Positions 33,073 through 58,456 of a stretch of DNA of 64,000 nt are shown one piece after another. This stretch comes from an uncultured Spirochaetaceae bacterium. Its GTDB lineage: Bacteria > Spirochaetota > Spirochaetia > Treponematales > Treponemataceae. The number at the start of each line of letters is the position of its first letter. Position 1 is the stretch's first letter. The position numbers and the translations under genes are program-made. The stretch covers positions 38,024 through 102,023 of the forward strand of contig CADANN010000001.1 of the NCBI GenBank assembly GCA_902789325.1. The letters run 5' to 3'. The notes under the pieces were generated by a model that saw nothing but the letters and a program-made list of their open reading frames with translations, ran no database searches and was not told the DNA's origin.

Positions 33073-33199
33073 TTTTTTCCTCGCAAAAAACAAAAAGGCG
33101 CCGTAAGAAGAATCCGAAATTTTCAGACTCTTTTTACGGCGCCTTTGCCTTTAAACTAAATTGTTTCTATATTATCGCAAAATGACATATTGTTGTCAA
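33073..33199 (-). promoter_or_regulatory. gltD-purF leader: sigma70 promoter + GGCAAAGG-box terminator hairpin
   Basis: On the minus strand: TTGACA (33199-194), 17-nt spacer, GATAAT (33176-171), box AAGGCAAAGG, hairpin arms at 33146-33134 and 33106-33094, then TTGTTTTTT. A GAGG RBS and the ATG at 33072 follow. Confidence 0.7.
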
Positions 33200-33237
33200 G
33201 TTGCGATAATCTGGAAATTCAGCGTCACACTCTAAAA

Positions 33238-35646
33238 CTATTTAGTTTCTGGTGTGTGCCACTTCCAGTTTACTACCTCTGGTAAATCTTCACCGAGTTC
33301 TGAGATGTGCTGCTTGTGAGCAACGAGAGTATCATTCATCTTCTGAACGAGGTGGCTAGATTTGTTTCCAAGCTGTGGCAAGTACTGCAATGCAGCCTTT
33401 ACGAGGTCGAAGCGGTCAATCTTGTTCTGTACGCGCATGTCGAACGGAGTTGTGATTGTACCTTCTTCGTGGTATCCATAAACGTGGAGGTTGCGGTTTT
33501 CACGAAGATATGTGAGCTCGTGTACCAGCTTTGGATATCCATGGAATGCGAAAATGATTGGCTTGTCCTTTGTGAACAAAGCATTGTATTCGCTTTCGCT
33601 GAGTCCGTGTGGATGCTGATGATCGCTCTGGAGTTTCATCAAGTCTACAACGTTTACAAAGCGGATCTTGAGTTCTGGAAGATTATCGCGAAGGATTGTT
33701 GTAGCAGCAAGTGCTTCAAGAGTTGGTGTATCACCACAACAAGCCATTACGAGATCTGGTTCCTGACCATCATCGTTAGAAGCCCAGTCCCAGATACCAA
33801 TACCCTGAGTACAGTGTTTAACTGCCTGATCCATTGTAAGCCACTGGCAGCTTGGGTGCTTAGAAGCAACAATTACGTTTACGTAGTTCTTGCTCTTAAT
33901 ACAGTGGTCGAATGTAGAAAGAAGACAGTTTGTATCAGGCGGCAAGTACATACGTACAACGTCAGCCTTTTTGTTAGAAATATGATCGAGGAATCCTGGA
34001 TCCTGGTGTGTGAATCCGTTGTGGTCCTGCTGCCATACGTTTGATGTAAGGATGAGGTTCAAAGATGCGATTGGTGCACGCCACTTGAGCTGTGAGCAAA
34101 CCTTGAGCCATTTTGCATGCTGAGAAGCCATTGAGTCGATGATACGAATGAATGCTTCGTAGCTTGCGAAGAATCCGTGACGACCTGTAAGGAGGTAACC
34201 TTCGAGCCAACCTTCACACATATGCTCAGAAAGGTATGAGTCCATGATACGTCCGTTGTGAGCGAGCTTATCATCTGTTGGAAGGATTTCTGCGTTGAAG
34301 TCGCGGTTTGTAGCTTCGAATGCAGCATAAAGTCTGTTAGACATAGACTCATCTGGTCCGAAGATACGGAAGTTCTTGTTGTCTTCGTTGAGCTTAAGAA
34401 CATCGCGGATATAGTTTCCGAGCTCTTTCATATCCTGTGCTTTTACGCTACCAGGAGTTTTAACTTCGAGAGCATATTTTTTGAAGTCAGGTGTGCGGAG
34501 GTCCTTAAGAAGGTTACCACCGTTTGCATGTGGGTTAGCAGAAATTCTGTGTTCACCCTTTGGAGCGATAGCCTGGATTTCAGCCTTGAGGCGGTAGTTC
34601 TCATCAAAGAGTTCTTCCGGCTTGTAAGACTTGAGCCATGCTTCGAGTTCCTTCATGTGTTTTGCTTCATTTGGATCTGGCTTTGTGAGGTCGATAGGAA
34701 CCTGGTGTGCACGGAATGAGTTTTCAATTGGAAGGCCGTCGTCGTTGAACTTTGGACCTGTCCATCCCTTTGGAGTGCGGAGAACGATCATAGGCCAGAA
34801 TGGGCGCTCTGTTTTTCCGTTTACACGAGCATCGCGCTGAATCTTCTGAATCTTTTCAATACACTTATCAACAGCAGCAGCCATTGCGTGGTGTACTTCC
34901 ATGTGGTCTGTATCTGGAGTTGCTTCAACAAAGATTGGATCCCAACCACAACCGTGGAAGAAGCTCTTTACTTCGTCCTTAGAAATACGTGCAAATATAG
35001 TTGGGTTAGAAATCTTATATCCGTTGAGGTGGAGGATTGGAAGAACTGCACCGTCTGTTACAGGATTAAGGAATTTGTTTGAGTGCCATGCTGTAGCCAA
35101 TGGACCAGTTTCTGCTTCACCATCACCTACGATACAAGTTGTAATGAGGTTAGGATTATCAAATACAGAACCGAATGCGTGAGCGATAGAATAACCAAGC
35201 TCACCACCTTCGTTGATAGAACCTGGAGTTTCTGGAGCAACGTGGCTTGAGATTCCGCCTGGGAATGAGAACTGCTTGCAAAGACGGCTCATACCTTCTT
35301 CATCAAGACTTACGTTTGGATAAACCTCTGAATAGTAACCTTCAAGATAAGAGTTAGCTACGAAGAAGTTTCCTCCATGTCCTGGACCTGAAATAAGAAT
35401 CATGTCGAGATTGTATTTTGTGATAGCTCGGTTCAAGTGAGTATACACAAAGTTCTGGCCTGGAACTGTACCCCAGTGACCAACGATTTTTGTTTTTACC
35501 TGATCGCGTGTTAAAGGCTTTCTCAAAAGAGGATTCTCTTTCATGTAAAGCTGGGCAGCTGCAAGATAGTTAGTTGCACGCCAGTACTGATCAAGTCGGT
35601 TGAAGTATTCTTCTGAATCTTCAATGCGTTTTGCCTTTTTTGACAT
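33238..35646 (-). CDS. xfp: xylulose-5-P/fructose-6-P phosphoketolase
   Basis: 802 aa. Typical N-terminus ([14 protein letters not shown]...HWGTxPG) and a ThDP motif region GDGEAETG. Confidence 0.95.
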
Positions 35647-35746
35647 ATAAAACTCCTGAGTAGGTTTACCCGTGGGCTTTCCTACAAAAAATTACGATAG
35701 GAGTTTACTGGTATGCAAGTTTTATTGCAATAGGATTTTAGGGCTT

Positions 35747-35798
35747 TAACGCAAATTTTACCCATTTTTATTTATAAAAGGGGGTAAAATTTGCGTTA
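35747..35798. promoter_or_regulatory. 17-bp perfect inverted repeat upstream of the xfp promoter
   Basis: TAACGCAAATTTTACCC (35747-63) and GGGTAAAATTTGCGTTA (35782-98) with an 18-nt spacer. On the minus strand the xfp promoter TTGCAA-17-TAAACT lies at 35730-35702. Confidence 0.55.
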
Positions 35799-35919
35799 TA
35801 AGGTATTTATATTTTGTTATAAATCAACTTTTTCCCCTTTTTGATTCTTTAAAAGGGGTGATTTTAATTTATAAGCCATTTTCGAACTCAAAATAAAGTT
35901 TCAAATGGCTTATAAAGCA

Positions 35920-38900
35920 CTATGCAGTGCACTTACGGAATGCAGCAAGAACTGCATCTTCATGATTTGCAATTGTTTTTTCCTGCTCAACGATTTCCTT
36001 CATGATACGAAGGTAGTCATTAGGGATGATTTTCTTGAATTTTGTTTTCATATTATCCCAATCAGCAAGAATTGCTTTTGCACGCTCACTGCCAGTTTCT
36101 TTTGCATGCTGTTCGATGAGTGCGTAGAGATGATTTTCATCAGTTGTGCCACTAAGGGTTGTTGTCTCATCATCAAGAGCATACATTTTTACCAGTTCGT
36201 GATTCATGCGTTTATAAAGATCATGATTTTCATCAAGAACATAGGCTACACCACCGCTCATACCGGCACAGAGATTCTTTCCGGTTCCTCCAAGAATTAC
36301 AGCTGTACCACCAGTCATATATTCAAGACCATGATCACCACAACCTTCGGCTACAACAGTTGCACCAGAGTTTCGAACACAGAAACGTTCACCGGCTACA
36401 CCATTAATAAATGCAGTTCCGCTGGTTGCTCCAAACAATGCTACGTTACCTACGATTATATTTCCGTCAGCTTTACCTTCGAACTCTGCAGGCTTTTTGA
36501 TTACAAGCTTTCCGCCACTCAAACCTTTACCGAATGCGTCGTTTGCATCTCCAGTAAGGCGCAATGTAAGTCCCTTTGGAATAAAAGCACCAAAGCTCTG
36601 GCCTGCACCACCTTTGAAGTTTACGCAGTAAGTGTCATCAGAAAGTGTATTTCCGAATTTTTTCTGAATTTCAGAGCCGAGTATTGTACCAACAGTTCGG
36701 TCTGTAGACTGGATGTCGATTAAATCACCAGTTTTCTTATTTTCAAAATCCGGAACAAGTTTTGTAAGATCAATGCGTTTTTCAAGCTCAAAGTCAAAAA
36801 GTGAACGGTCAGCTTTCCAATCGCCGCCAGCTTCTGCATTAGCAAGAACACGGCTCATATCAACCAGCCCTGCTCTCTTGAAGCCCTGCTTATCCTTAAG
36901 CTTGAGCAAATCAGTTCTACCACAGAGCTCTTCTACAGTACGAACTCCAAGTTTTGCCATAATCTCACGCATTTCCTGAGCAATGAACTTCATAAAATTG
37001 ATTACGTATTCAGGCTTTCCAGGGAATTTTGCGCGAAGCTTTTCGTTCTGAGTTGCAACACCAAATGGACAGGTATCCAGCTGACATACACGCATCATAG
37101 AACAGCCCATAGCAATAAGAGGAGCAGTAGCAAAACCGAATTCTTCTGCACCAAGAAGAGCTGCAATTACGACATCACGACCACTCATAAGCTTACCATC
37201 AGTTTCAATTACAACACGACCACGAAGTCCATTCTGAATCAGAGTCTGGTGAGTTTCAGCAAGACCAAGCTCCCAAGGTAAACCAGCATGATGGATTGAA
37301 CTGATTGGAGCCGCACCTGTACCACCGTCGTGACCAGAAATCAAAATTACCTGAGCACCAGCTTTTGCAACACCAGCGGCAATTGTTCCAACGCCGGCTT
37401 CACTTACAAGCTTTACACTGATACGTGCTGCACGGTTTGCATTTTTCAAATCGTAAATCAGCTGAGCCAAATCTTCGATAGAATAGATATCATGATGAGG
37501 TGGAGGCGAAATCAAAGCAACACCAGGGGTTGCATATCTTGTTTTTGCAATCCAAGGATAAACCTTTTTACCAGGCAAATGTCCACCTTCACCAGGCTTA
37601 GCCCCCTGTGCCATCTTAATCTGGATTTCGCGGGCACTCAAAAGATATTCTTCTGTAACACCAAAACGTCCAGAAGCAACCTGTTTAATTGCAGAGTTAT
37701 ATTCTGTTCCAAGACGCTCCGGTTTTTCTCCACCTTCTCCACTGTTGCTTTTTCCGTGAATGGCATTCATTGCAGCGGCCATACATTTATGAGCCTCTTC
37801 ACTGATTGAACCATAACTCATGGCACCAGTCTTAAAGCGTTTTACAATCTCGTCTACACTTTCAACTTCATCAATTGAAATACCTTCACCGGCTTTTTCA
37901 AAATCAAAATCGAGCATTGCACGAAGAGTATGTGGATGAGAGTTATCGTCAACTAACGCAGTGTATTCCTTAAAGCGAGTGTAATCTCCATTGCGGGTTG
38001 CCTGCTGCAAAGCCACAATAGTCTCTGGATTATAAAGATGGCTTTCTGCCTGAGGGCCACGACGGAATTTATGCTTACCGAAAGAATCCAGATGCTGGTT
38101 TACAGTAAGGCCAGCAGGATCAAAGCCCTGATCGTGATGATAGCGAACGTCTTCTTCTATTTCTTTAAGACCTACCCCTCCAACACGGCTGACTGTATTT
38201 GTAAAATATTTTTCAACTACGTCACCGGCAATTCCAACTGCTTCAAAAATCTGAGCACTCTGGTAAGACTGAATTGTTGAGATACCCATTTTTGCAGCAA
38301 TCTTTACAATACCATTTATAATTGCCTTATTATAATCATCAATTGCTGTGTGATAATCTTTATCAAGAATTTTCTGATCAATAAGTTCTGCAATTGCTTC
38401 GTGTGCAAGATAAGGGTTGATTGCACGGGCACCATAACCAAGACACATTGCAGCCTGATGAACATCTCGAACTTCTGCAGTCTCAAGAATAATAGAAATT
38501 GCAGTACGCTTTTTTGTTCGGATTAAATACTGTTCAACAGCACTGGTTGCAAGGATAGCAGGAATTGCAGCGTGAGTTTCATCTACACCGCGGTCACTAA
38601 GAATGATGATGTTGTATCCATCGACATAAGCAGCATCGATTTGTGCAAAGAGTTTTTCAAGTGCAGTTTTCAACAGACTGTCACCCCGAACTTGTTTCGG
38701 GGTCTCATTTGTAGATGCTGAAACAAGTTCAGCATGACTATCTTTATTCAAATCAAATAAAATTGAAATTGTTTTTGTCTTAAGTCCCGGCTGATTCAAA
38801 GTACTGATTTTCATCAAATCTGTACCAGTCAAAATCGGATTATTAATTTCAAGAACACGACAGTTCTTTGCCTCCGGCTGCAAAAGGTTACCATCCTTTC

Positions 38901-40506
38901 CAACATAAACAGTAGTGTCAGTAACAACCTTCTCACGAAGACTATCAATAGGAGGGTTTGTAACCTGAGCAAAAAGCTGCTTGAAGTAAGAGAAAAGCGA
39001 CGGATGTTTTTCACTCATTACAGCAAGCGGAGTATCAACACCCATACTTGCAGTAGGTTCTACACCGTTACGAGCCATAGGCAGAATCATTTCATTTACA
39101 TCTTCATAATTCCAGCCGAAAGCACGGTACATGATATTTCTTTCATCCTGAGTAAATACAGGAATCTTTTTGTTTGGAATCTTCAGATCAGCAAGGTGAA
39201 TAAGATTCATATCAAGCCATTCACCATAAGGATAAAGTGAAGCATATTCTTTTTTACATTCTTCATCAGAAATGATTTTTTTCTGAACAGTATCTACAAG
39301 AAGGATTCTTCCCGGCTGCAAACGTGATTTAATTTTTATATTTTCTTCTGGAATATCAAGAACACCAACTTCACTGCTCAAAATAAGCATATTGTCTTTT
39401 GTGATGTAATAGCGGCTTGGACGAAGACCATTACGATCAAGAGTTGCACCAAGCAAATCACCATCACTAAACAGAATTGCAGCAGGACCATCCCAGCTTT
39501 CCATCATAGTTGCCCAGTAATGATAAAAATCTTTTTTATTCTGAGGCATATTATCATCGTGTTTCCAAGGTTCAGGAATACACATCATTACAGCAAGAGG
39601 AAGAGGAACGCCGTTCATAACCAGGAACTCGAGAGTATTATCGAGCATTGCAGAGTCAGAACCAGTAGTATCTACTGCAGGAAGGATTTTCTGCATCTGA
39701 GTTTTATCAAGTTTGGTAGAACTAACAGTTTCTTCTCGAGCAAGCATACGGTCAACGTTTCCACGGATTGTATTGATTTCTCCGTTATGCGCAATAAAGC
39801 GGTTTGGATGAGCACGCTGCCAGCTAGGCTGAGTATTTGTAGAAAAGCGGGAATGAACAAGAGCAAGAGCCGATTCATAATCAGCAGACTGTAAATCGCT
39901 GTAAAAAGTGCGGAGCTCATGAACAAGGAACATACCTTTGTAAACAATTGTACGGCTGCTCAAAGAACAAACATATGTTTTATGTTCGCTGTCCTGTTTT
40001 TCAAACTCGCGTCTGGCAATATAAAGTCTGCGGTCGAAATCAATTCCCTTCTCACATTCAGAAGGACGCGCAATAAAGGCCTGCCAGATATTAGGCATAC
40101 AGTCACGCGCCTTTTTACCAAGCACTTCAGCATTTACAGGAACTTTACGCCAGCCAAGGAACTTCAATCCTTCTGCAGAACAGCATTTTTCAAAACGAGC
40201 TTTTTCAGAAGCACAAACAGTATCGTCTCCAGGAAAGAAAAACTGACCAATACCGTAATCGCGTTCACCAAGCGAACCAATCAAATCCTGCACAGCCTGC
40301 TTATAAAACTTGTGACAAATCTGAACAAGAATACCTACACCATCTCCAGTTTCACCGCTGGCATCTTTACCTGCACGGTGTTCAAGTTTTTCAACGATAC
40401 TCAAGGCATTATCAACAATTTTGTGCGTTTTAGAACCGTCAATATTTACTACCGCACCAATACCGCAAGCATCATGTTCAAATGCTGGTTCATACAATGT
40501 TTTCAT
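35920..40506 (-). CDS. gltB: glutamate synthase large subunit
   Basis: 1528 aa. N-terminal Ntn Cys (FEHDACGIG), FMN/3Fe-4S central domains and a C-terminal GXGXG beta-helix domain. Confidence 0.97.
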   Translation of the reverse strand: MKTLYEPAFEHDACGIGAVVNIDGSKTHKIVDNALSIVEKLEHRAGKDASGETGDGVGILVQICHKFYKQAVQDLIGSLGERDYGIGQFFFPGDDTVCASEKARFEKCCSAEGLKFLGWRKVPVNAEVLGKKARDCMPNIWQAFIARPSECEKGIDFDRRLYIARREFEKQDSEHKTYVCSLSSRTIVYKGMFLVHELRTFYSDLQSADYESALALVHSRFSTNTQPSWQRAHPNRFIAHNGEINTIRGNVDRMLAREETVSSTKLDKTQMQKILPAVDTTGSDSAMLDNTLEFLVMNGVPLPLAVMMCIPEPWKHDDNMPQNKKDFYHYWATMMESWDGPAAILFSDGDLLGATLDRNGLRPSRYYITKDNMLILSSEVGVLDIPEENIKIKSRLQPGRILLVDTVQKKIISDEECKKEYASLYPYGEWLDMNLIHLADLKIPNKKIPVFTQDERNIMYRAFGWNYEDVNEMILPMARNGVEPTASMGVDTPLAVMSEKHPSLFSYFKQLFAQVTNPPIDSLREKVVTDTTVYVGKDGNLLQPEAKNCRVLEINNPILTGTDLMKISTLNQPGLKTKTISILFDLNKDSHAELVSASTNETPKQVRGDSLLKTALEKLFAQIDAAYVDGYNIIILSDRGVDETHAAIPAILATSAVEQYLIRTKKRTAISIILETAEVRDVHQAAMCLGYGARAINPYLAHEAIAELIDQKILDKDYHTAIDDYNKAIINGIVKIAAKMGISTIQSYQSAQIFEAVGIAGDVVEKYFTNTVSRVGGVGLKEIEEDVRYHHDQGFDPAGLTVNQHLDSFGKHKFRRGPQAESHLYNPETIVALQQATRNGDYTRFKEYTALVDDNSHPHTLRAMLDFDFEKAGEGISIDEVESVDEIVKRFKTGAMSYGSISEEAHKCMAAAMNAIHGKSNSGEGGEKPERLGTEYNSAIKQVASGRFGVTEEYLLSAREIQIKMAQGAKPGEGGHLPGKKVYPWIAKTRYATPGVALISPPPHHDIYSIEDLAQLIYDLKNANRAARISVKLVSEAGVGTIAAGVAKAGAQVILISGHDGGTGAAPISSIHHAGLPWELGLAETHQTLIQNGLRGRVVIETDGKLMSGRDVVIAALLGAEEFGFATAPLIAMGCSMMRVCQLDTCPFGVATQNEKLRAKFPGKPEYVINFMKFIAQEMREIMAKLGVRTVEELCGRTDLLKLKDKQGFKRAGLVDMSRVLANAEAGGDWKADRSLFDFELEKRIDLTKLVPDFENKKTGDLIDIQSTDRTVGTILGSEIQKKFGNTLSDDTYCVNFKGGAGQSFGAFIPKGLTLRLTGDANDAFGKGLSGGKLVIKKPAEFEGKADGNIIVGNVALFGATSGTAFINGVAGERFCVRNSGATVVAEGCGDHGLEYMTGGTAVILGGTGKNLCAGMSGGVAYVLDENHDLYKRMNHELVKMYALDDETTTLSGTTDENHLYALIEQHAKETGSERAKAILADWDNMKTKFKKIIPNDYLRIMKEIVEQEKTIANHEDAVLAAFRKCTA
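38680..38738. repeat. 59-nt double-hairpin repeat element inside gltB (copy A, complete)
   Basis: GTCA-CCCCGAA-CTTGT-TTCGGGG-TCTCATTTGTAG-ATGCTGAA-ACAAG-TTCAGCAT-GAC. It is translated in frame as SHAELVSASTNETPKQVRGD. Confidence 0.8.
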
Positions 40507-40713
40507 CTAACGTTCCTTATCATCCACCATAAAAAAAAGCCGCGGACACAATTACGCACCAAACGTAAAAGTTACCGCGGCCTCTTTGCCGGCTTAGAGA
40601 TTTTCACAAAACAAAAAAGGCCGTAGACACAATCTCATACCCATATGAAATTATATCTACGACCTCTTTGCCGTAATTTAAGTAATACTACAAAAATGCA
40701 GTGTTACTGTCAA
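40507..40713 (-). promoter_or_regulatory. gltB leader: sigma70 promoter + two tandem GGCAAAGAGG-box terminator hairpins
   Basis: On the minus strand: TTGACA (40713-708), 17-nt spacer, TAGTAT (40690-685).
- Hairpin 1: box ACGGCAAAGAGG (40674-663), arms 40664-56 and 40627-19, then T6.
- Hairpin 2: box CCGGCAAAGAGG (40592-581), arms 40581-75 and 40545-39, then T8.
The flanking gene is divergent, so these hairpins cannot terminate an upstream gene. Confidence 0.75.
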
Positions 40714-40781
40714 GAAAAACAAATAATTATTTTAATGAAAATCAAAAAAACGTGTAGTATAATTAAAAAAGAGGAAAAAAG

Positions 40782-41356: not shown

Positions 41357-42910
41357 TTATCCATTCAATATTTTTGCTGCCTCGTTTTCCCCATTTGATG
41401 TTGAATAAAAATAAGGTGTTTCAGCATCAAATTCGCCGGCACAGGTATCAACCATTTTGAAGGATATCGGAGGATACAACATTCCGCTGTTACTTTTTTC
41501 AGCCTTTGTAATATTTTCCAGCTTGCACAGGAACCACTCGTCAATTTTTGTAATTTCGTGAATCTGTTCAACTGAATAAAGTCCGCGTTTAAGGGCCTGA
41601 TAAATTGCAAATATTCTCTGATCGGTGCACTGTCCTACCCGTTCGCGTATTTTCTCATCACCTTCTTTTTCAAAGGCAGGAAGATTCAAATCTTTTACAC
41701 CAACTTCAAGTCCTCGGGCAGCCTTAAGAATTGCTTCTTCAAAGTTCTGGCCAATTGCCATAACTTCACCAGTTGCCTTCATCTGTGTACCAAGCTTACG
41801 TGCAGCATAAACAAATTTATCGAACGGGAACTTTGGCATTTTTACAACTACATAGTCGAGAACAGGTTCAAAGCAGGCTTTTGTCTTCTTTGTTACAAAG
41901 TTTGGAATTTCATCCAGAGTAAAGCCAACTGCTATGAGGGCTGCAACCTTTGCGATTGGATAGCCGGTTGCTTTTGAAGCGAGCGCTGAAGAACGCGAAA
42001 CACGAGGGTTTACCTCAATTACCGCATATTCAAAGCTGTCTGGATTAAGTGCAAACTGACAGTTACAGCCACCTTCAATTTCGAGGGCGCTGATGATATT
42101 GAGTGCGGCACTTCGCAGCATCTGATATTCTTTATCTGCAAGAGTCACAGTTGGTGCAATTACGATTGAGTCACCAGTATGAACACCAACAGGATCAAAG
42201 TTTTCCATAGAACAGACAGTAATTACGTTAGCATTGCTGTCCCGCATTACTTCAAACTCAACTTCTTTCCATCCGCTGATACATTTTTCTACAAGTATCT
42301 GATGAATTGGCGAACGATGAAGTCCGTTATGAGCAATTTCGTCCAGTTCGCGGTCGTTATTTACAATACCACCACCTGTTCCACCAAGGGTAAAGGCCGG
42401 ACGGATAATTGCAGGAAAGCCGATTTCGTTATGAACAAAATCAGCAGCATCTTCGTAAGTAGTTACAACTTTTGAAGGAATACAAGGCTCTCCTATTGCT
42501 TCCATTGTATCTTTGAACATCTGGCGGTCTTCTGCCTTGTCGATTGTTTCAGGGCGTGCACCAAGCAGCTGAACATTATGGCTCGCAAGAAAGCCGGATT
42601 TTGCAAGCTCCATACTGAGGGTCAATCCCGTCTGACCGCCAAGTGTTGAAAGCAGGCTGTCTGGTTTTTCTTTTTCGATGATTCTTTCAAGAGTTCGCAG
42701 AGTAAGCGGTTCCATGTAAATCTCATCTGCCATTTCGTGGTCAGTCATTAAAGTTGCCGGATTTGAGTTTACAAGACAAACTTCAAGTCCAAGAGATTTC
42801 AGAGCCTTACATGCCTGATTTCCGGCATAGTCAAATTCCGCTGCCTGTCCAATTACAATCGGACCGGAACCAATAATCATTACTTTGTGAATATTTTTAT
42901 TGAGAGGCAC
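41357..42910 (-). CDS. carB: carbamoyl-phosphate synthase large subunit, N-terminal half only
   Basis: 517 aa. It begins [25 protein letters not shown] and ends at ...[20 protein letters not shown], the junction between the two homologous CarB halves. A stop follows, and then a convergent GNAT gene. Confidence 0.9.
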
Positions 42911-42911: not shown

Positions 42912-44042
42912 TTATTTTTCCTCCATCATTTTTAAGAATCTGTCGAATAAAAAGTTTGTATCGTGCGGGCCACCGCAAGCTTCCGGATGGAACTGTACGC
43001 TGAAGGCTGGAATATCTGTATAATCTACACCTTCAACTGTTCCGTCGTTTACATTAAAGAAACTCATTTTTGCAAAGGACGGCAAAGAGGTGTTTTCTAC
43101 TGCATAACCATGATTCTGACTTGTAATGTAAACACGATTTGTTGCTGTATCTTTTACCGGATGATTTCCACCGCGGTGTCCGTATTTTAATTTGCTGGTT
43201 TTTGCACCACGTGCAAGAGCGAGCATCTGATGTCCAAGACAGATTCCAAAGATTGGAATTTTTCCGTACTCGCACAATTTTCTAATTTCTTCTATAACAC
43301 CAACATTGTCTGCAGGGTCTCCAGGGCCGTTACTGAGCATAACTCCATCGGGATTTTGTTTGATTACTTGTTCTGCAGTGGAATTATATGGAACGACTGT
43401 AACACGACAGCCACGTTTTTCGAGCTCGCGCTGAATATTTAATTTTGCGCCAAAGTCATAAAGGATGACGTGGGGGGCGTTGCGGGGGCTCTCCCCTGCA
43501 GAAGGGGGTGTGGCGAAGACCGCTTGCGGGCTGAGCCCAGGGGGAAGGCTTTCCCCCTCACTATGCTGGACACTTTCAACAGCTTTTTCTATTTTATAAT
43601 TTTTGATTTCTTCAAGCAGTTTGTCGGAAACTTCCTGGCATTCTCCGCTAACAATCATGCCGTTCATTACGCCAGATTCGCGAAGTCGTTTTGTAAGGGC
43701 GCGGGTATCAATTCCACAGATTCCAACAACCCCCTGCTCTTTCAAAAAATCATTCAACGAACCAGCACAGCGGAAATTAGAAGGCGCCTCACACAGCTCA
43801 CGAACTATATAACCGCGCACCCAGGATTTTTTACTTTCAAAATCCTCTGGCATTACACCATAGTTTCCAATTAATGGAAAAGTCTGTGTAACTATCTGCC
43901 CGTAATAACTTGGATCTGTAAGGGTTTCAATGTAGCCGGTCATTCCTGTAGTAAAAACTGTTTCACCGATTGTAGTGCCTACCGCTCCAATTGAAGTTCC
44001 TTCAAAAACCGTCCCGTCTGCGAGAATTAACCAAGCCTTCAT
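42912..44042 (-). CDS. carA: carbamoyl-phosphate synthase small (glutaminase) subunit
   Basis: 376 aa with the triad motif GICLGHQ...HPE. Contains a GC-rich linker segment (see findings). Confidence 0.95.
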
Positions 44043-44172
44043 TTTGACTCCTATGTCAGGCCTCTATGGCCAAAAAAAAAAGACGCTCATTCCATTTGAA
44101 GACAATAAGTCTATAAATCGAATGAACGTCTTTGTTCTTTAATGTTATACAGTGTTTACAAATTGTGGTCAA
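44043..44172 (-). promoter_or_regulatory. carAB leader: sigma70 promoter + A-tract/terminator hairpin
   Basis: On the minus strand: TTGACC (44172-167), 17-nt spacer, TATAAC (44149-144). Then AGAACAAAGACGTTCATTC...GAATGAGCGTCTTT (arms 44133-120 and 44092-079) plus T10, followed by an AGGAG RBS. Confidence 0.65.
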
Positions 44173-44270
44173 TACGTTTTACTTCTTTTAGTAGTATTAA
44201 TTAGTACTACTATTGACACTTTTTTTAGTTATTGGTAAAACAAAAAAAATTGTCATAGGAGGCTGCAAAA

Positions 44271-46334: not shown

Positions 46335-46552
46335 TTGACAAAAATATTTAGAAATTGTATAAAACAAATAACAAACGACAATGAGGTCGCAGAACAGGGG
46401 TTTCTGCGACCTTTTTTGTTTTAAAATCATTCCGACTGCCGTTGGCATGTTCGGAGAAACTAACAATCGGCAAAGGCGCTGCGTTTTCATTTTGATGTAC
46501 ACAGAATGAAAGTGCGGCGTTTTTTTTGTCGGTTATATATAAGGATAATAAA
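46335..46552 (+). promoter_or_regulatory. type III GS leader: sigma70 promoter + two tandem box/terminator hairpins
   Basis: TTGACA (46335-40), 17-nt spacer, TATAAA (46358-63).
- Hairpin 1: ACGACAATGAGG box, arms GGTCGCAGAA (46385-94) and TTCTGCGACC (46402-11), then T6.
- Hairpin 2: TCGGCAAAGG box (46468-76), arms 46477-91 and 46505-19, then T8.
RBS AAGGA, ATG at 46553. Confidence 0.75.
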
Positions 46553-48658
46553 ATGGACGAAGTTACACAGATTTTTGGTGAAAACGTTTTTAATGAAACG
46601 GTTATGAAGGCTCGACTGCCAAAAGAAACTTTTAAGCAGTTGATGAAGACAATTGAAGGCGGCGAAAAACTCGACGCTTCTGTTGCTACTGTTGTTGCTA
46701 ACGCAATGAAAGATTGGGCTGTCGAAAAAGGTGCAACTCATTATACACACTGGTTCCAGCCATTAACTGGAATTACTGCAGAAAAACATGATAGCTTTAT
46801 CAGCCCTCTTGATGGCGGAAAAGTAATCATGGAGTTCAGCGGAAAAGAACTTGTTCAGGGTGAACCTGATGCTTCAAGCTTCCCAAGCGGTGGTATTCGT
46901 GCAACATTCGAAGCACGCGGTTATACAGCATGGGACCCAACAAGCTACGCATTTATTAAAGACGGAACACTTTGTATTCCAACTGCATTCTGTTCATACA
47001 CAGGAGAAGCTCTTGATAAAAAGACTCCACTCCTCCGCTCTATGCAGGCAATCAGCAAGCAGGCTGTTCGTGTTTTGAAATTATTTGAAGGCAACGAAGC
47101 CGTAACCTCTGTAAAGACAACAGTTGGTCCAGAACAGGAATACTTCCTCGTAGACAAATCAGTTTATGACAAGCGCGAAGACTTGATTTACACAGGCCGC
47201 ACATTGTTTGGTGCAAAAGCTCCAAAAGGCCAGGAACTCGAGGATCACTACTTTGGTATGATTAAACCTCGTGTACAGGAATTCATGAAGGATTTGAACA
47301 AAGAACTCTGGAAGCTTGGAATCCTCGCAAAAACAGAACATAACGAAGTTGCTCCAGCTCAGCATGAGTTGGCTCCAATCTTCTCAACAACAAACATTGC
47401 CTGCGACCACAACCAGCTTACAATGGAAATGATGAGAAAGATTGCTTCTAAACACGGAATGGTTTGTCTTCTTCACGAAAAACCATTTGCAGGTGTAAAC
47501 GGAAGCGGTAAACATAACAACTGGTCAATTTCAACAAATACAGGTAAAAACCTTCTTGATCCAGGTGCTACACCAGATCAGAACGCACAGTTCCTTTTGT
47601 TCTTGTGTGCAATCATTAAGGCAGTTGATGAGTATCAGGATTTGCTCCGTATCTCTGTAGCAAGTGCCGGAAACGACCACCGTCTTGGAGCAAACGAAGC
47701 GCCTCCAGCAATCATCTCAATCTTCCTTGGTGATGAATTGAGCGAGATTCTTGAATGCATTGAACAGGGCAAACCATATGGTAAGCACGAAAAAGAAAAG
47801 ATGCAGATTGGTGTTACAGTTCTTCCAGATTTCAACAAGGATACAACAGACCGTAACCGTACTTCACCATTCGCATTTACTGGAAACAAGTTCGAATTCC
47901 GTATGCTTGGTTCAAACGAATCAATTGCCTGCGCTAACGTATTCTTGAACACAGTAGTTGCAGAAGAGTTGTCTCAGTTTGCAGACATTCTTGAAAAATC
48001 AAAGGACTTCAAGGGCGACCTTCATGATTTGATTTTGAAAACAATCAAAGAGCACAAGAGAATCATTTTCAACGGAAACGGATATGATGATTCTTGGGTT
48101 AAAGAAGCTGAAAAACGCGGACTTTACAACCTCAAATCTACACCAGAAGCTCTTCCACACATTCTTGATGAAAAGAACGTTAAAGTATTCGAAAAGTTTG
48201 GTGTATACAGCAAGGTTGAACTCGAAAGCCGCTACGAAATTCACAACGAGAACTATTCAAAGATTATCAACATCGAAGCAGAAACAATGCTCGAAATGGC
48301 AAACAAGTTCATTCTTCCAGCCGCAAGCAAATATGCAACTTCACTTGCAGGAACAATCGGCTTGAAGAAAGCAAGTGGTGATGTAGACGCAACTTACGAA
48401 ACAGAAACACTCAGCAAGGTTTCATCACTCACAAGCAGCATCTACAAAAAGACTGCAGCTCTCGAAAAAGCAGTACTCGATGCAAAAGAACTTGGCGCAA
48501 GCGGTGTTCCATCAGGCAAAATCTCACTCTTCTACCGCGAAAGCGTATTTGCCGCAATGGGCGAACTCCGCGCAGTAGTTGATGAACTCGAAGTAATCAC
48601 ACCAAAAGAATTGTGGCCATTCCCAAGCTACGGTGACTTGCTCTACAGCGTACGCTAA
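46553..48658 (+). CDS. glnN: glutamine synthetase type III
   Basis: About 700 aa, which is the GSIII length. Motifs [19 protein letters not shown] and [10 protein letters not shown]. Start trimmed to MDEVTQ because the ORF-track start lies in the leader T-tract. Confidence 0.93.
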
Positions 48659-48735: not shown

Positions 48736-48738
48736 CTT

Positions 48739-50679: not shown

Positions 50680-50931
50680 TTGACAACTTTTTTTAATTTC
50701 GGTATAAAGAAAAACATCTAAGGCAAAGAGGTCGTAGGAATAATCCTTCGACCTCTTTTCTTTTTTAACAAACATGGCAATGGCGCTGCGTATACTACGT
50801 TTCTAACTAACGTTAGTTATCCGCAGCGTTTATTTTTTACGGCGATGATGTCGGGCATTTGTGCACAATGTCTGAAATTGTCGCCGTTATTTTTTTAATG
50901 TGATTTTCGAACTTACACAGGAGGTATACAG
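50680..50931 (+). promoter_or_regulatory. amtB leader: sigma70 promoter + three tandem terminator hairpins
   Basis: TTGACA (50680-85), 17-nt spacer, TATAAA (50703-08).
- Hairpin 1: AAGGCAAAGAGGTCG, arms 50725-34 and 50749-58, then T-run.
- Hairpin 2: ATGGCAATGGCGCTGCG (50774-90) pairing with CGCAGCG (50822-28), then TTTATTTTTT.
- Hairpin 3: ACGGCGA (50839-45) pairing with TCGCCGT (50881-87), then TATTTTTTT.
RBS AGGAGG, ATG at 50932. Confidence 0.75.
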
Positions 50932-52602
50932 ATGAGTGAAGTTTGGAGTGTATGGTTTTTAATCGGCGCTGCACTTGTATTCTTTATGCAGTGCGGTTTT
51001 GCAATGGTTGAAACAGGTTTTACAAGAGCGAAGAATGCGGGAAACATCATTATGAAAAACCTGATGGATTTCTGTATCGGAACTCCTATGTTTATGCTTC
51101 TCGGCTTTGGTTTAATGATGAGCGAGAACTATTTCTTTGGTGTAATTGGTAAACCAAATATGCAGTTGTTTACAAACTTTGCTGAAGGCGACTGGTCAGC
51201 ATTCGTTTTCAATCTTGTATTCTGTGCAACAGCTGCTACAATCGTATCTGGTTCTATGGCAGAACGAACTAAGTTCTCTGCTTACTGTATCTACTCTGCT
51301 GTAATTTCTGCAGTTGTTTACCCTATCGAAGCTGGTTGGGTTTGGAACTCACAGGGCTGGCTCGTTCAGCTTGGTTTCGTAGACTTCGCTGGTGGTGCTG
51401 CAATTCACTCAGTAGGAGGGACCGCTGCATTGATTGGTGCAATCTTCCTTGGTCCTCGTATTGGAAAGTATGATTACGATAAGGACGGAAAGGTAACAAA
51501 GGTACACGCTATTCCTGGTCACTCTTTGACACTCGGTGCTCTCGGAACTTTCATCCTCTGGTTCGGATGGTACGGCTTCAACGGAGCTGCTTGTACACAG
51601 CTTCTTGGAGTTGGAGGTCTTGCTGCAGTATTCACAACAACAACAATTGCCCCTGCAGTTGCTGCTGTTACTACAATGATTTTTACCTGGGTAAAGAACG
51701 GTAAGCCTGATGTTTCTATGACACTCAACGCTTCACTTGCTGGTCTTGTTGCTATTACTCCTACATGTGCCACAGTTGATGCACTTGGTGCAAGCATCAT
51801 CGGTATCGTTTCAGGTATTATCGTTGTAGTAGTTGTTGAATTCCTTGATATGAAGCTCCACATTGATGACCCGGTTGGTGCTGTTGCAGTTCACCTTGCA
51901 AACGGTATCTGGGGTACATTAAGTGATGGTTTATTCAACGTTGAAAACGGTGTATTCTACGGTGGCGGTGTAAAGCACCTTGGAGTACAGTGTCTTGGTG
52001 AGTTCACAATTGTTGCATGGACAACAGTTTGTATGATTATCACATTCAGCCTTATCAAGAAACTCCATGGACTTCGTGCAAGCCGTGAAGAAGAAATCAT
52101 CGGTCTTGATAAGCTCGAGCACGGAATTGATTCAAGCTACGCAGGATTCATCATGGCTCCACAGGTTCTTGGCGGAGACAGCCCTGCATCAGGAGAAAGC
52201 GTTCCTGTTGAAAAGGCAGTTCCAGTTGCAAAGGCAACAGCTCGTCCAGATGCAAAGTTCCATATGGTTACAATCATTACACGCCAGAGCAAGTTCGACG
52301 AGCTCAAGGCTGCAATGAACGACATCAACGTAACAGGTATGACAGTTACAAACGTACTTGGTTGCGGCCAGCAGCACGGAAACGTTCAGAAGTATCGTGG
52401 TGTTGAAATGGATATGACATTGCTTCCTAAGATTAAGGTTGATATCGTAGTAAGCGAAGTTCCAGTTGATCTTGTTGTAACAGCCGCTAAGGAAGTTCTT
52501 TACACAGGCCACATCGGCGACGGAAAGATTTTCGTATACGATGTTCAGAATGTTGTAAAGGTTCGTACCGGAGAGGAAGGATACGAAGCTTTGCAGGATT
52601 AG
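50932..52602 (+). CDS. amtB: ammonium transporter fused to a C-terminal PII (GlnK/GlnB) domain
   Basis: Residues 1 to ~400 are an Amt/MEP polytopic domain (AGGAAIHSVGG, WFGWYGFN). A Pro/Ala/Ser linker follows. The last ~115 aa are PII-like (FHMVTIITR...T-loop GQQHGNVQKYRG...GDGKIFVYDV). Confidence 0.9.
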   Translation: MSEVWSVWFLIGAALVFFMQCGFAMVETGFTRAKNAGNIIMKNLMDFCIGTPMFMLLGFGLMMSENYFFGVIGKPNMQLFTNFAEGDWSAFVFNLVFCATAATIVSGSMAERTKFSAYCIYSAVISAVVYPIEAGWVWNSQGWLVQLGFVDFAGGAAIHSVGGTAALIGAIFLGPRIGKYDYDKDGKVTKVHAIPGHSLTLGALGTFILWFGWYGFNGAACTQLLGVGGLAAVFTTTTIAPAVAAVTTMIFTWVKNGKPDVSMTLNASLAGLVAITPTCATVDALGASIIGIVSGIIVVVVVEFLDMKLHIDDPVGAVAVHLANGIWGTLSDGLFNVENGVFYGGGVKHLGVQCLGEFTIVAWTTVCMIITFSLIKKLHGLRASREEEIIGLDKLEHGIDSSYAGFIMAPQVLGGDSPASGESVPVEKAVPVAKATARPDAKFHMVTIITRQSKFDELKAAMNDINVTGMTVTNVLGCGQQHGNVQKYRGVEMDMTLLPKIKVDIVVSEVPVDLVVTAAKEVLYTGHIGDGKIFVYDVQNVVKVRTGEEGYEALQD

Positions 52603-52644
52603 GCTAACTAACGTTATGTTGTTTTCTATTTACTCATAATATTT

Positions 52645-52669
52645 GCCCGGTGAAAGCCGGGCGTTTTTT
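52645..52669 (+). terminator. intrinsic terminator after amtB-PII
   Basis: GCCCGG-TGAAAG-CCGGGC followed by GTTTTTT. Confidence 0.75.
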
Positions 52670-52809
52670 ATATATTCGGTTTCAGACCAGTTAGGAATGT
52701 TTGTTTAAAATAAATATAATAAGTTGTTATATTTAAAACAGATAAAAGGACATAAATGAGTTGAATTGGTAAAATAGTTAAAAGAAATTTCAAAAAACAT
52801 AGGAGAAAA

Positions 52810-54135: not shown

Positions 54136-54215
54136 TCCCCTTAGCAAAAGGAAAGTTCGTTTGGAAAGCAAGGAAGCAGGCGGTAGCCAGCGACCGGCTT
54201 TTCCAAACGTGTAAG

Positions 54216-54243
54216 TCCGCGCGAGAGCGCGGATTTTTTTTTC
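54216..54243 (+). terminator. intrinsic terminator after the FGE-domain gene
   Basis: TCCGCGC-GAGA-GCGCGGA followed by T10. Confidence 0.8.
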
Positions 54244-54289
54244 TCTATCAATGAATTCATAATATTCTGGAGGTTCCCGCGTAGTTTTA

Positions 54290-54724
54290 TTAATTAATTG
54301 ATTGAATTATAAAACAGGCAACCAATCCTATACTCATAAAAGGAATAAAAGCAAAAGGCTTTTTACCGAACTTTTTATTTATAACGATTAAAGCAACTAC
54401 ATCTTCAATTATAAAACAAAAAGGAATTAACCGAGGAATCAAAAATAATCCCTGAAAAAATCCGAACCATACGTCAGCAGGGCCCAACTTGTTTTTTGTT
54501 ATTTTTCTGACGGCAAAATAAAAAGTGCCACAAATCATACTCGAGATAATATAAATCCACATTCCTTCACGAGCAAAAATCAGATGACAGATTAAGGCCG
54601 CAAAAATTGATACCCATTGAAAATGAATGCTGACTTCCAGTTTTTTTATATCTTGGATTGAAAGAATCAAAGAAAACAACAATATAATAGAAAAAGACGT
54701 TATTGAATATAATGTAATGTTCAT
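54290..54724 (-). CDS. small polytopic membrane protein, prepilin-peptidase (A24)-like
   Basis: 144 aa with 4-5 TM helices and a conserved-looking Asp in SIQDIKKLEV. The assignment is tentative. Confidence 0.45.
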   Translation of the reverse strand: MNITLYSITSFSIILLFSLILSIQDIKKLEVSIHFQWVSIFAALICHLIFAREGMWIYIISSMICGTFYFAVRKITKNKLGPADVWFGFFQGLFLIPRLIPFCFIIEDVVALIVINKKFGKKPFAFIPFMSIGLVACFIIQSIN

Positions 54725-54779
54725 AAGAAAAGTATAAAATACTGTTCGTTAATGGTCAAATTTATGTTACACTACCCCT

Positions 54780-56516: not shown

Positions 56517-56527
56517 GCAGTAAAACT

Positions 56528-56572
56528 GTCATTCCGAACTTGTTTCGGAATCTAAATCAAGTTCAGCATGAC
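56528..56572. repeat. double-hairpin repeat element, copy C (second hairpin half-deleted)
   Basis: GTC-ATTCCGAA-CTTGT-TTCGGAAT-CTAAATC-AAGTTCAGCATGAC. It overlaps the last 3 codons and the stop of the minus-strand gene. Confidence 0.75.
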
Positions 56573-57876
56573 TCAACCACACGGATTGCAAAAGTGTCAT
56601 CGGCAATGCAAACTTCGCCGCGTGCAACAATTTTGCCTGAGCGGATAATCTGTGCAAACTCTCCGGCCCTCTGTTTCAAAATAACATAAGAGCCCTGATG
56701 CAGGCCTGCAACTTCTTCTTTTGAAAGGTAAGCGCTTCCAAGCTGAATCGAAATATAATCTTTTTCATCGTAGATGATTTCATTCAACTGAGGATTTTCA
56801 GCAATTCTCATTCCAAAAAGTTCATCAATTGCAACAGTTTTACCAGTGTGAATTACACGGTTCTCATAAACAAGATTTAGTCCTTCATTTTCCTTTTTAT
56901 CCAGAATTAAAATCAAGCCCGGTTCAAGAGAAACATTTTCCGGACGGAATCTTCCAAGTTCAATAAAAACATTGTCCGGCTGCTGATGACTTTTTATATT
57001 TGAAAGATTCTGAAATCTTATTTTTCCACCAACAGTTCCTGCATTTCCGCCGTCACCAAAAAAGCCGCCCATAACCATTTCTTCAAGAAGAGTGTCACTA
57101 AACTGAAGATTTATCCAGCCTTCCTGACCGGCAACATTTCCCTTAAGAGCAAGCAGCAGCATCATGCAATTGTCTTCCTGCCGAGTCGTATTGGAATTTC
57201 CTGCAGCCACAGCTTTTCCCAGCTCAAACTTTTCGTCAGAAACCTTCCCGTCTGTGCGCCGACAGATTTCTTCCTTAAGCATTCCTGTTACAGTTTTTAC
57301 AAAATAATTCTTAAAAACATCAATATCAAATTCAGTAATGGCCTCGTATTTCGTGCAATCCTGTTTGAGCAGTGCCTTTGCAATCAGAGCATCTGCTTCA
57401 ATAGTAAAACCTGCATTCGAATAATCAAAATCATAGAAAAAACATTTCTGCGGAATCGAATGTAAAAACTCGGAATTAATCATCTGATCCACAAGTGACA
57501 CAGAAAAATCACAGCGCTCATTCATCATGGCAGTAAATTCATGATTTATAAGACGGCAGATATCCTCGCCCAGAATCCAAAGCTCCCGCTGCATATAACG
57601 CGGATAACGGTCTGGCTGGCGGAAGTTATACTCCTTAATTTTCTTTCCGCTCACATCCTGACTCACAGGCAATTCGCCGTTCATAATCGACTCAACTTCA
57701 ACTCCAAATACTTCGGCAAGTTTAGGAAGTACTGTCACATCCGGGCAACCTTCACCACGCTCCCACTTTGAAACAGCTTTGTCGGTTACATTACATTGTT
57801 CTGCAAGTTCCTTTTGAGTAAGTCCCTTTCGATTTCGTAATTCATAAATCAAAAATCCAGTTTTTTCTGCATTCAT
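56563..57876 (-). CDS. XRE-type HTH fused to FliM-like middle domain and FliN/SpoA-like C-terminal domain
   Basis: - HTH: LRNRKGLTQKELAEQCNVTDKAVSKWERGE.
- FliM-like segment: IKEYNFRQPDRYPRYMQRELWILGEDICRLINHEFTAMM...
- FliN-like end: GSYVILKQRAGEFAQIIRSGKIVARGEVCIADDTFAIRVVE.
The start follows an AAGGAG RBS. Confidence 0.75.
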   Translation of the reverse strand: MNAEKTGFLIYELRNRKGLTQKELAEQCNVTDKAVSKWERGEGCPDVTVLPKLAEVFGVEVESIMNGELPVSQDVSGKKIKEYNFRQPDRYPRYMQRELWILGEDICRLINHEFTAMMNERCDFSVSLVDQMINSEFLHSIPQKCFFYDFDYSNAGFTIEADALIAKALLKQDCTKYEAITEFDIDVFKNYFVKTVTGMLKEEICRRTDGKVSDEKFELGKAVAAGNSNTTRQEDNCMMLLLALKGNVAGQEGWINLQFSDTLLEEMVMGGFFGDGGNAGTVGGKIRFQNLSNIKSHQQPDNVFIELGRFRPENVSLEPGLILILDKKENEGLNLVYENRVIHTGKTVAIDELFGMRIAENPQLNEIIYDEKDYISIQLGSAYLSKEEVAGLHQGSYVILKQRAGEFAQIIRSGKIVARGEVCIADDTFAIRVVESC

Positions 57877-57962
57877 AATAATTCTCCTTAGCAGTTTCCC
57901 GCTTACATTCAAAATCGTAACACGGAAGCTGCAGTCTGTAACCCGACGTGTAGTTTAACAGA

Positions 57963-57986
57963 GTAGAATTCTAAGTAGAGTTCTAC
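57963..57986. promoter_or_regulatory. tandem palindromic half-sites upstream of the HTH-FliM/N gene (operator candidate)
   Basis: GTAGAATTCTA-A-GTAGAGTTCTAC. TAGAATTCTA is a perfect 10-bp palindrome. The site lies about 90-110 bp upstream of the start codon. Confidence 0.35.
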
Positions 57987-58172
57987 TGAAAAACAACTGA
58001 TTTTACAGTCAATTCTTCAAATTTCTACACACAACTCTACTTAAGCATAACATGAATACTGTAACTTTCAATAAAAAAATCAGTTATTTAGATGATTTTA
58101 AGTGACATTATTATTTTTTTTATATTCTACAAAGGTCTAAATAAGATTTAATAACATAAGATTCAAAAACTA

Positions 58173-58456
58173 TTGCAAATCAACGTTTAAAACGATAATA
58201 TAGTAGAAACGACAAAGAGGTCGTAGATAAAATCCTTGAAAACAACAGGGGTTCTGTCTACGACCTCTTTTTTTTATTTGTGAAAAGGAGGAAAAGGACC
58301 GTCCAAAATCAATTTGGAAGATTCTAAAAAGTTGCTCCACGTATTCGCAACTTTTTTTAACGAATCTTCGATAGACCGCATGAACATTTTCGGGTTGAAA
58401 CCTAAAATTGCTTCACAGCGGTTCAGCAATTTTTTTACGGTTTCTTCGATAAGAGT
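58173..58456 (+). promoter_or_regulatory. asnB-carB'-pyrG-glnA leader: sigma70 promoter + three tandem terminator hairpins
   Basis: TTGCAA (58173-78), 17-nt spacer, TAATAT (58196-201).
- Hairpin 1: ACGACAAAGAGGTCGTAGA, arms 58214-27 and 58257-70, then T8.
- Hairpin 2: AAAAAGTTGC (58326-35) and GCAACTTTTT (58347-56).
- Hairpin 3: AAAATTGCT (58404-12) and AGCAATTTT (58425-33), then TTT.
ATG at 58457. The upstream gene is divergent. Confidence 0.75.

Follow-up and report, generated by a model that had tools for sequence, protein, structure and literature searches.

How are the enzymes that make and use glutamine brought under one control when their genes lie in separate operons on both strands? 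A 64,000-nt stretch of DNA from an uncultured Spirochaetaceae bacterium raises the question (GenBank assembly GCA_902789325.1, contig CADANN010000001.1, positions 38,024 to 102,023; hereafter the window, whose own coordinates are used throughout). Six of its operons (gltD-purF, gltB, carA-carB, glnN, amtB-PII and the asnB operon) begin with similar leaders, which a first-pass annotation had described as a promoter, a conserved box and tandem terminators, and had read as a common control device for glutamine-linked operons. We recovered all six leaders and their boxes, and the idea of a shared device is borne out. The leaders most probably form an ANTAR-type (NitR/GnfR-like) nitrogen regulon of protein-dependent transcription attenuators; this would be a known kind of system, newly seen in Treponema.

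A small hairpin competes with each terminator

Across the six leaders we identified nine units in which a promoter is followed by the conserved box and a strong intrinsic terminator. Direct reading of the upstream regions showed that all six promoters are near-consensus, with a 17-nt spacer between the −35 and −10 elements. The box folds as a 3–7-bp stem with a C–G closing pair and a hexaloop AAWGRS, which in the nine units is AAAGAG, AATGAG, AAAGGC, AATGGC or AAAGAC. The GGC of the box, previously thought to be conserved outside any helix, pairs in this alternative hairpin with the GYC just 3′ of the A-rich block, which is part of the terminator 5′ arm (for example, ACGAC[AAAGAG]GUCGU in asnB-1). 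In all nine units the 3′ arm of the mini-hairpin and loop positions 4–6 double as the 5′ arm of the terminator, after which comes a T-run. The terminators of the boxed units fold with −21 to −38 kcal/mol (ViennaRNA). Because the 3′ arm and loop positions 4–6 are shared, the two folds are mutually exclusive, with the terminator by far the more stable; and as the 3′ arm of the box is the 5′ arm of the terminator, the box is an antiterminator. Judged from the sequence, this layout is the anatomy of a factor-stabilised antiterminator. Among the mechanisms that had been proposed for these leaders, factor-dependent antitermination by an RNA-binding regulator is the best supported.

The box is rare outside this setting. 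The window holds 11 matches to its pattern, GRCAAWGRSG, where 1.7 would be expected, and none of 100 shuffles reached 11; 8 of the 11 fall in the named leaders, and the carA leader holds a ninth, variant copy. A scan of the 64 kb for the box joined to a terminator returned no further site beyond the leaders, in agreement with the earlier impression that the arrangement is special to them, and the strong 3′-end terminators of the window (2118, 28516, 52644, 54213 and, on the minus strand, 67) carry no box. Where a leader has a second copy, it lies 55–90 nt downstream of the first and is again fused to a terminator. The tandem hairpins first described are present as nine box–terminator units and three further hairpins, which proved to have a degenerate box (amtB-3) or no box at all (asnB-2 and asnB-3).

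The hairpin is conserved and covaries in relatives

We searched species-representative genomes with the type III glutamine synthetase (GS) protein encoded by glnN and obtained 80 loci. The closest are Treponema metagenome-assembled genomes (MAGs), at 78–90% identity; the others are mostly from Clostridia (Oscillospiraceae, Lachnospiraceae and Ruminococcus) and Erysipelotrichaceae, with one Sphaerochaeta and one Spirochaetales MAG. A scanner that asked for 3 or more stem base pairs, an AAWGNN loop and a 3′ arm able to re-pair downstream ahead of a T-run found the same element 50–150 nt upstream of glnN in most of the 80 loci. The genes that follow the scanner sites, the nine units of the window included, are glnN (34), amtB-PII (10), large or split glutamate synthase (GOGAT; 9), asnB (5), pyrG (3), and carB, carA and gltD (1 each). 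When no stem was required, 64 of the 78 box-plus-terminator sites upstream of nitrogen genes still had at least 3 stacked base pairs, compared with about 14% expected by chance. A laxer class, defined by the box and any downstream complement, was too noisy (232 sites, pairing 0.6 versus 0.4) and was set aside for these context-restricted sets.

For covariation we aligned 69 leaders, comprising the nine window units and 60 non-window leaders from Clostridia, Erysipelotrichales and spirochaetes. Stem cells are paired in 82% of cases, versus 59.6% in shuffles, and the covariation score is 0.669, versus 0.241 in shuffled alignments and 0.08–0.19 in slid registers. Pair 4, which was free of the selection criterion, is paired in 63 of the 69 leaders (CG in 23, AU in 18 and GC in 16), and G–U pairs occur in many stems, with 16 GU at pair 2. 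The proposal that a covariance model would find covarying stems in relatives is thus upheld: a model built from the 60 non-window leaders only, and run against both strands of the window, placed eight of the nine leader hairpins as its top eight matches (22.4–14.9 bits). The best non-leader match scored 13.1 bits, and the remaining leader hairpin, amtB-2, scored 10.6 bits.

Conservation does not extend to the terminator loops between the arms, which range from 6 to about 45 nt and vary in length and sequence across taxa. Shared loop blocks had been taken as a sign of function. The blocks ATTGTGTC, CAGGGGTT(T)CTG, AATCCTT and TTTGTGAAAA are all present in the window, and another Treponema (contig L082) retains them in its orthologous gltB and asnB leaders; they are missing from the glnN-1 leader of the related Treponema contig L001 and from distant taxa. 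This pattern suggests shared ancestry and not required, functional parts.

On L082 the motif lies ahead of asnB, twice ahead of gltB, and also ahead of dapF, where the dapF-aminotransferase operon has an ANTAR-type hairpin–terminator leader, ATGAC[AAAGAG]GTCAT (18353–18372). The dapF promoter region of the window (44043–44270) contains no such hairpin–terminator leader, so membership of the regulon differs between close relatives.

The hairpin resembles the sites of ANTAR proteins

The published ANTAR recognition element is a short stem, overlapping a terminator, whose hexaloop has A as its first base and G as its fourth (PMC3369931). For EutV, a 13-mer AGCAANGRRGCUY overlaps terminators on their 5′ side (Ramesh et al. 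2012, PMC3369931), and A1 and G4 are required for EutV binding and induction (PMC3369931). In Geobacter sulfurreducens, CAGGCAANGGCGCC lies upstream of and overlaps the leader terminators of nifH, glnK and amtB (Ueki and Lovley 2010, PMC2995071), and the ANTAR response regulator GnfR binds leader RNA that holds CAGGCAANGGCGCC in vitro (PMC2995071).

All nine window units have a hexaloop with A1 and G4 on a hairpin of at least 3 bp, and in all of them this hairpin overlaps the terminator 5′ arm. The window boxes GGCAAAGAGGUCG, GGCAAAGGCGCC and GGCAAUGGCGCU fit both the EutV consensus AGCAANGRRGCUY and the GnfR site; the gltD box, AAGGCAAAGGCGCC, is close to the GnfR site, and the glnN-2 and amtB-2 boxes are similar. 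Where the boxes depart from the published sites, the changes are covariations within the stem, and some copies have C as the sixth loop base. The element, which the first-pass annotation had assigned to no known class, fits the ANTAR recognition hairpin, and an ANTAR gene ends the asnB operon on a closely matching contig, as described below; that Rfam 15 returned nothing for the leaders may help to explain its unfamiliar look.

The content of the set points the same way. ANTAR regulons are known for PII, ammonium transporters, and glutamate and glutamine synthases, with numerous tandem attenuators, and Desulfotomaculum acetoxidans has 13 ANTAR elements in 6 transcription units (PMC3369931). 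NitR of Clostridium saccharobutylicum, whose gene follows glnA, is described as an antiterminator of the ANTAR type by which GS and GOGAT genes are induced on nitrogen limitation (PMC6316151). The predicted content of the window regulon (glnN, amtB-PII, GOGAT, asnB and others) and its tandem attenuators match these published ANTAR nitrogen regulons.

A candidate regulator gene follows glnA

With a hidden Markov model (HMM) built from four ANTAR domains in the PDB (EutV, Rv1626, NasR and AmiR), we found that 22 of the 80 loci encode a protein of about 190 amino acids no more than 10 kb from glnN; Pfam confirms the domain as PF03861. Rigid, hand-written ANTAR regular expressions had matched nothing in the window or the loci, which was a false negative given the 22 proteins that the HMM then found. 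Run on the proteins of the window, the HMM detected no ANTAR gene within the 64 kb. A metagenome contig found through the window PyrG (L081) has an identical PyrG and 96.6% nucleotide identity to window positions 61171–63999. Its gene order is pyrG-glnA-ANTAR, with a 189-amino-acid ANTAR gene at 3679–4248 directly after glnA, which places the end of the window inside glnA, about 750 bp ahead of the predicted position of the regulator gene.

The same gene is present on L082 and two further contigs (L082–L084). L082 has the order asnB-carA-carB-pyrG-glnA-ANTAR, convergent with gltB-gltD-purF. In the Sphaerochaeta (L063) and the Spirochaetales MAG (L026), an ANTAR gene stands at the end of a motif-led operon that runs divergently from glnN; the order there is GATase_2, Glu_synthase, Pyr_redox_2, GXGXG, GS type I and ANTAR, followed by pyrG in L063. 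Close homologues of the ANTAR protein are abundant, at 83–93% identity, and carry the label 'ANTAR domain-containing protein [Treponema sp.]'. In 19 of 23 loci the gene directly ahead of the ANTAR gene encodes a type I GS (for example, L063 2807–4693, L026 4611–6410 and L081 2392–4248). The arrangement is that of NitR, with an ANTAR gene directly after a type I GS gene, and GS and GOGAT genes as targets.

The receiver-like domain of these proteins looks degenerate. Pfam Response_reg scores are weak or below cut-off, and most orthologues have Asn at the phospho-acceptor position (INAPL) and no DD pair; the L081 protein keeps an Asp (IIIADS). No kinase gene adjoins the ANTAR gene in the L081 and L082–L084 loci. 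With a receiver that mostly lacks the phospho-acceptor Asp and a gene that sits next to type I GS, control by a partner protein, possibly GS, seems likelier than control by phosphorylation.

On L081, glnA (2392–3670) is called as two open reading frames (ORFs) of 191 and 232 amino acids, whereas it is a single 395-amino-acid gene in L082–L084; the split is a frameshift or an assembly error.

Proposed mechanism

We propose that transcription starts from a strong sigma-70-type promoter and that the mini-hairpin would emerge in the RNA within about 10–25 nt. By default, as sequence and folding predict, the RNA would fold into the terminator and transcription would stop before the ribosome-binding site. 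When nitrogen or glutamine is scarce, an ANTAR protein would bind the hexaloop hairpin, the candidate being the NitR/GnfR-like 189-amino-acid protein whose gene follows glnA and would close the asnB operon. The bound protein would keep the terminator 5′ arm in the small hairpin, so that RNA polymerase could read through, and tandem units would give a tighter off-state and a sharper response. As the regulator gene would sit inside an operon that it controls, the circuit would probably be positively autoregulated. The steps beyond the sequence anatomy are modelled on homologous systems. The degenerate receiver suggests, more tentatively, that a partner protein, possibly GS, controls the regulator, as in AmiC–AmiR or NasS–NasT; the His at the G4-stacking position, shared with AmiR, and the pairing of the GS and ANTAR genes also suggest partner control.

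In a rumen-type Treponema, one RNA-binding regulator would in this way coordinate essentially all glutamine-making and glutamine-using enzymes, and both the regulon and a candidate gene for its regulator can now be named. The glnA–ANTAR pair and the degenerate receiver point to a signal path in which GS or glutamine controls an RNA-binding protein; for NitR, this path has been called 'not fully understood'.

Comparison with known ANTAR systems

Of the known systems, the eut leaders of Enterococcus faecalis, controlled by EutV/EutW, are alike in their A1/G4 hexaloop, in a 13-mer laid over the terminator 5′ arm, in having several attenuators per regulon and in an ANTAR effector (a candidate here). 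They differ in that they need a P1 hexaloop hairpin 5–12 nt upstream, whereas the Treponema leaders have a single hairpin near the transcript start; in that EutV is phosphorylated and has a cognate kinase, whereas the candidate here has what looks like a degenerate receiver and no kinase gene in its vicinity; and in their targets, which are ethanolamine genes rather than genes of nitrogen assimilation. The GnfK/GnfR system shares a CAGGCAANGGCGCC-like site over the leader terminators of nitrogen genes, and there the binding of RNA by GnfR prevents premature termination. However, GnfR is a true response regulator, which GnfK activates, and it acts with RpoN-dependent promoters, whereas the promoters here are sigma-70-like, and its targets are nif genes rather than GS III, GOGAT, carbamoyl phosphate synthetase, AsnB and PyrG.

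NitR (Stutz et al. 2007, cited in PMC6316151 and PMC4676874) shares the ANTAR gene directly after type I glnA and the control of GS and GOGAT by antitermination; compared with the NitR regulon as those citing papers present it, the spirochaete regulon is larger and adds amtB-PII, asnB, carAB and pyrG. In AmiC–AmiR of Pseudomonas aeruginosa and in NasS–NasT, the N-terminal domain of the ANTAR protein resembles a receiver but is non-phosphorylatable, and a partner protein exerts control, as may be the case here; the residue that stacks on G4 is His in AmiR (EAHQHL) as it is in the candidate regulator (EAHRYL). Unlike in those systems, the adjacent gene here encodes a glutamine synthetase and not a periplasmic-binding-protein-like sensor.

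Single hairpins without P1

Several observations weigh against the assignment to an ANTAR regulon. The canonical ANTAR target consists of two hexaloop hairpins, P1 and P2, 5–12 nt apart (PMC3369931), and EutV needs P1 for antitermination in vivo and in vitro (PMC3369931, PMC8934654). The leaders lack this dual-hairpin arrangement: only 1 of the 69 has a P1-like A..G.. hexaloop hairpin in the 40 nt upstream, versus a shuffle expectation of 8.6%. The E-values of the covariance model are weak (0.003–0.28 per 128 kb searched), because the element is only 20 nt long. The regulator gene would lie outside the window, its place being predicted from the conspecific contig L081, and both the presumed direction of the response (on in nitrogen limitation) and the presumed signal are borrowed from NitR and GnfR only. 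Finally, with the box of amtB-3 degenerate and asnB-2 and asnB-3 unboxed, antitermination limited to the boxes would leave full read-through of these two leaders unaccounted for.

The lack of P1 bears on what the minimal target is. An ANTAR dimer contacts one hexaloop, and the minimal motif has been redefined as a single hexaloop (Walshe et al. 2022, PMC8934654), a motif that the window units contain; the same authors argue that P1 is necessary given the limited time that transcription allows (PMC8934654). In our leaders the first loop base comes 10–26 nt (median 15) after the end of the −10 box, which puts the start of the RNA at the hairpin or just ahead of it. Nor is a second hexaloop hairpin supplied from within the terminator loop: 9 of the 69 leaders have one there (6.2% expected), which we judged no commoner than chance. 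The gltB-1 terminator loop holds such a hairpin, UUUCAU[AUGGGU]AUGAGA, but this is not general. With neither P1 nor an inner second hexaloop, the units are single-hexaloop antiterminators, and the same predicted P1-less design is common to many Clostridia. Long terminator loops, with up to about 45 nt between the arms, could give time for the protein to bind.

We raise, as a speculation that we consider possible but rather doubtful, that these leaders, together with at least 60 similar ones from Clostridia, Erysipelotrichales and spirochaetes, make up a separate ANTAR subclass that has been overlooked. In this subclass one promoter-proximal hexaloop would suffice without P1, long loops might buy time, and a pseudo-receiver ANTAR protein would be the effector, its activity governed by binding to the neighbouring type I GS-like protein, so that GS would act as a sensor and an AmiC/AmiR-like sequestration would report glutamine status. 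Already on our main reading, ANTAR antiterminators would occur naturally as single-hexaloop units at the transcript start in dozens of taxa, whereas the EutV model holds that an upstream P1 is needed to load the protein in time. Searches based on the dual hairpin would miss single-hexaloop sites and, if the idea is true, would have missed a whole class of regulon.

Alternative explanations

The rival that survives best, which we nevertheless regard as improbable, is that the hairpin is bound by an RNA-binding protein of another kind, such as a PII-linked factor or a member of another antiterminator family, and that its likeness to ANTAR sites is convergent. The missing P1 would fit this, as would the presence of an ANTAR gene within 10 kb in only 22 of the 80 loci and its absence from the window. 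Convergence would have to account, however, for the coincidence of A1, G4, the C–G closing pair and a 13–14-nt consensus with two independently defined ANTAR sites. Moreover, an ANTAR gene is embedded in motif-controlled operons of both spirochaetes and Clostridia, no other candidate RNA-binding gene recurs in the loci, and we found no evidence for the link to PII that had been entertained for these leaders.

That the leaders are protein-free, ligand-sensing riboswitches, for example for glutamine, is very unlikely. The elements do lie in the 5′ untranslated regions of glutamine-related genes with a terminator as expression platform, and some terminator loops are long and contain inner hairpins. 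Yet conservation across taxa is limited to a hairpin of about 16–20 nt with no aptamer-sized core, and the loops vary freely in length and sequence. Searches against Rfam 15 gave no leader match at the gathering score and, over 33000–58500, nothing relevant at E up to 10 (two tRNAs and noise). The earlier suggestion of ligand sensing thus finds no evidence here.

We give equally little weight to a DNA operator, in which the box would be the site of a repressor just downstream of the promoter and the terminators would be incidental. The first copy does lie at about +1 to +25 and is partly palindromic (ACGAC-N6-GTCGT), but many stems rely on G–U pairs, as at pair 2, and are not palindromic in DNA. 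The second copies lie 55–90 nt downstream of the first and are each terminator-fused, the asymmetric loop never occurs in the antisense orientation, and box and terminator arm overlap in every case.

Least credible is that these are ordinary, unregulated terminators of a flavour generic to the genome, since A-tract/T-tract terminators are common but the gene-end terminators of the window have no box and the element is confined to nitrogen-gene leaders across phyla. The refutation that the first-pass annotation had allowed for on this ground therefore fails. PyrR-like binding, a CsrA site, boxB/N-type processive antitermination, a leader peptide and reiterative transcription were also considered and dropped, for want of a sequence match (no GGA loop and no Rfam hit) or because they do not fit a hairpin that overlaps every terminator.

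Leaders and genes of the nitrogen operons

Pfam searches with the window proteins confirmed the gene identities of the six operons. On the minus strand, gltD (31510–33093) and purF (30094–31509) are read from a promoter TTGACA-17-GATAAT at 33171–33199. Their leader contains the mini-hairpin GGC[AAAGGC]GCC (33138–33150), the top covariance-model match in the window at 22.4 bits, and a terminator with its T-run at 33085–33146; the unit folds with −38 kcal/mol. The gltB gene (35920–40506, minus) has a promoter TTGACA-17-TAGTAT (40685–40713) and two units: gltB-1, with the mini-hairpin TTACGGC[AAAGAG]GTCGTAG (40657–40676; 18.9 bits) and a terminator at 40608–40669, and gltB-2, with CGGC[AAAGAG]GCCG (40578–40591; 15.0 bits) and a terminator at 40531–40587.

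The carA gene (42912–44042, minus) adjoins the N-terminal half of carB (41357–42910, minus). The promoter, TTGACC-17-TATAAC (44144–44172), is followed by the mini-hairpin GAAC[AAAGAC]GTTC (copy GAACAAAGACGTTC, read directly; 44124–44137), which had been ranked as a weaker copy and is instead the third-best covariance-model match in the window, at 19.7 bits. Its terminator (44072–44133) is of a long GTTCATTC...GAATGAGC subtype that is also found ahead of pyrG and of a 261-amino-acid ORF in L001; a related subtype sits ahead of the split-GOGAT operon in Clostridia. The C-terminal half of carB lies in the asnB operon (about 60250–61826, plus), so that the two halves are on different strands and separated by about 17 kb; in the related Treponema contigs L001 and L082, carB is a single intact gene of 1,045–1,081 amino acids.

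On the plus strand, glnN (about 46553–48658) is preceded by a promoter TTGACA-17-TATAAA (46335–46363) and two units: glnN-1, with CGAC[AATGAG]GTCG (46376–46389; 16.1 bits) and a terminator at 46383–46422, and glnN-2, with CGGC[AAAGGC]GCTG (46468–46481; 16.3 bits) and a terminator at 46472–46527. The ORF call for glnN begins at a TTG (46526) inside the T-run of the second terminator. The likely start is the ATG at 46553, which has a Shine–Dalgarno-like TAAGGAT (46540–46546) ahead of it and agrees with the start in L001.

The amtB-PII gene (50932–52602, plus) encodes a 556-amino-acid AmtB–PII fusion, a fusion that is also found downstream of the motif in many Clostridia loci. Its promoter, TTGACA-17-TATAAA (50680–50708), is followed by amtB-1, with GGC[AAAGAG]GTC (50722–50733; 14.9 bits) and a terminator at 50725–50766, and by amtB-2, with the weakest copy of the box, TGGC[AATGGC]GCTG (50775–50788; 10.6 bits), and a terminator at 50782–50838. 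A third terminator, amtB-3 (50839–50896), has the degenerate box CGGC[GATGAT]GTCG, in which loop position 1 is G and not A. It is uncertain whether amtB-3 is a regulated unit; it may be a decayed unit or a constitutive attenuator.

The asnB operon (plus strand) comprises asnB (58457–60247), the C-terminal half of carB, pyrG (61842–63437) and, as the last gene visible, the 5′ part of type I glnA (63465–64000, the window end). Its promoter, TTGCAA-17-TAATAT (58173–58201), is followed by asnB-1, with ACGAC[AAAGAG]GTCGT (58209–58224; 20.1 bits) and a terminator at 58214–58275. The unboxed hairpin/T-run elements asnB-2 (58326–58358) and asnB-3 (58404–58436) come next; asnB-2 is nested in an inverted repeat, GAAGATTC...GAATCTTC, and a stretch of about 170 nt that contains both elements (58290–58456) is missing from the orthologous asnB leader of L082.

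Other features of the window

In a 449-amino-acid protein (56563–57912, minus), an XRE-type HTH_3 domain is joined to C-terminal domains of the flagellar switch proteins FliM and FliN, an unusual architecture. Between the end of gltB and the start of xfp (35700–35860) are two long inverted repeats, TAACGCAAATTTTACCC...GGGTAAAATTTGCGTTA and ACCCCTTTTAAAGAATCAAAAAGGGG, of which the latter looks like a bidirectional terminator.

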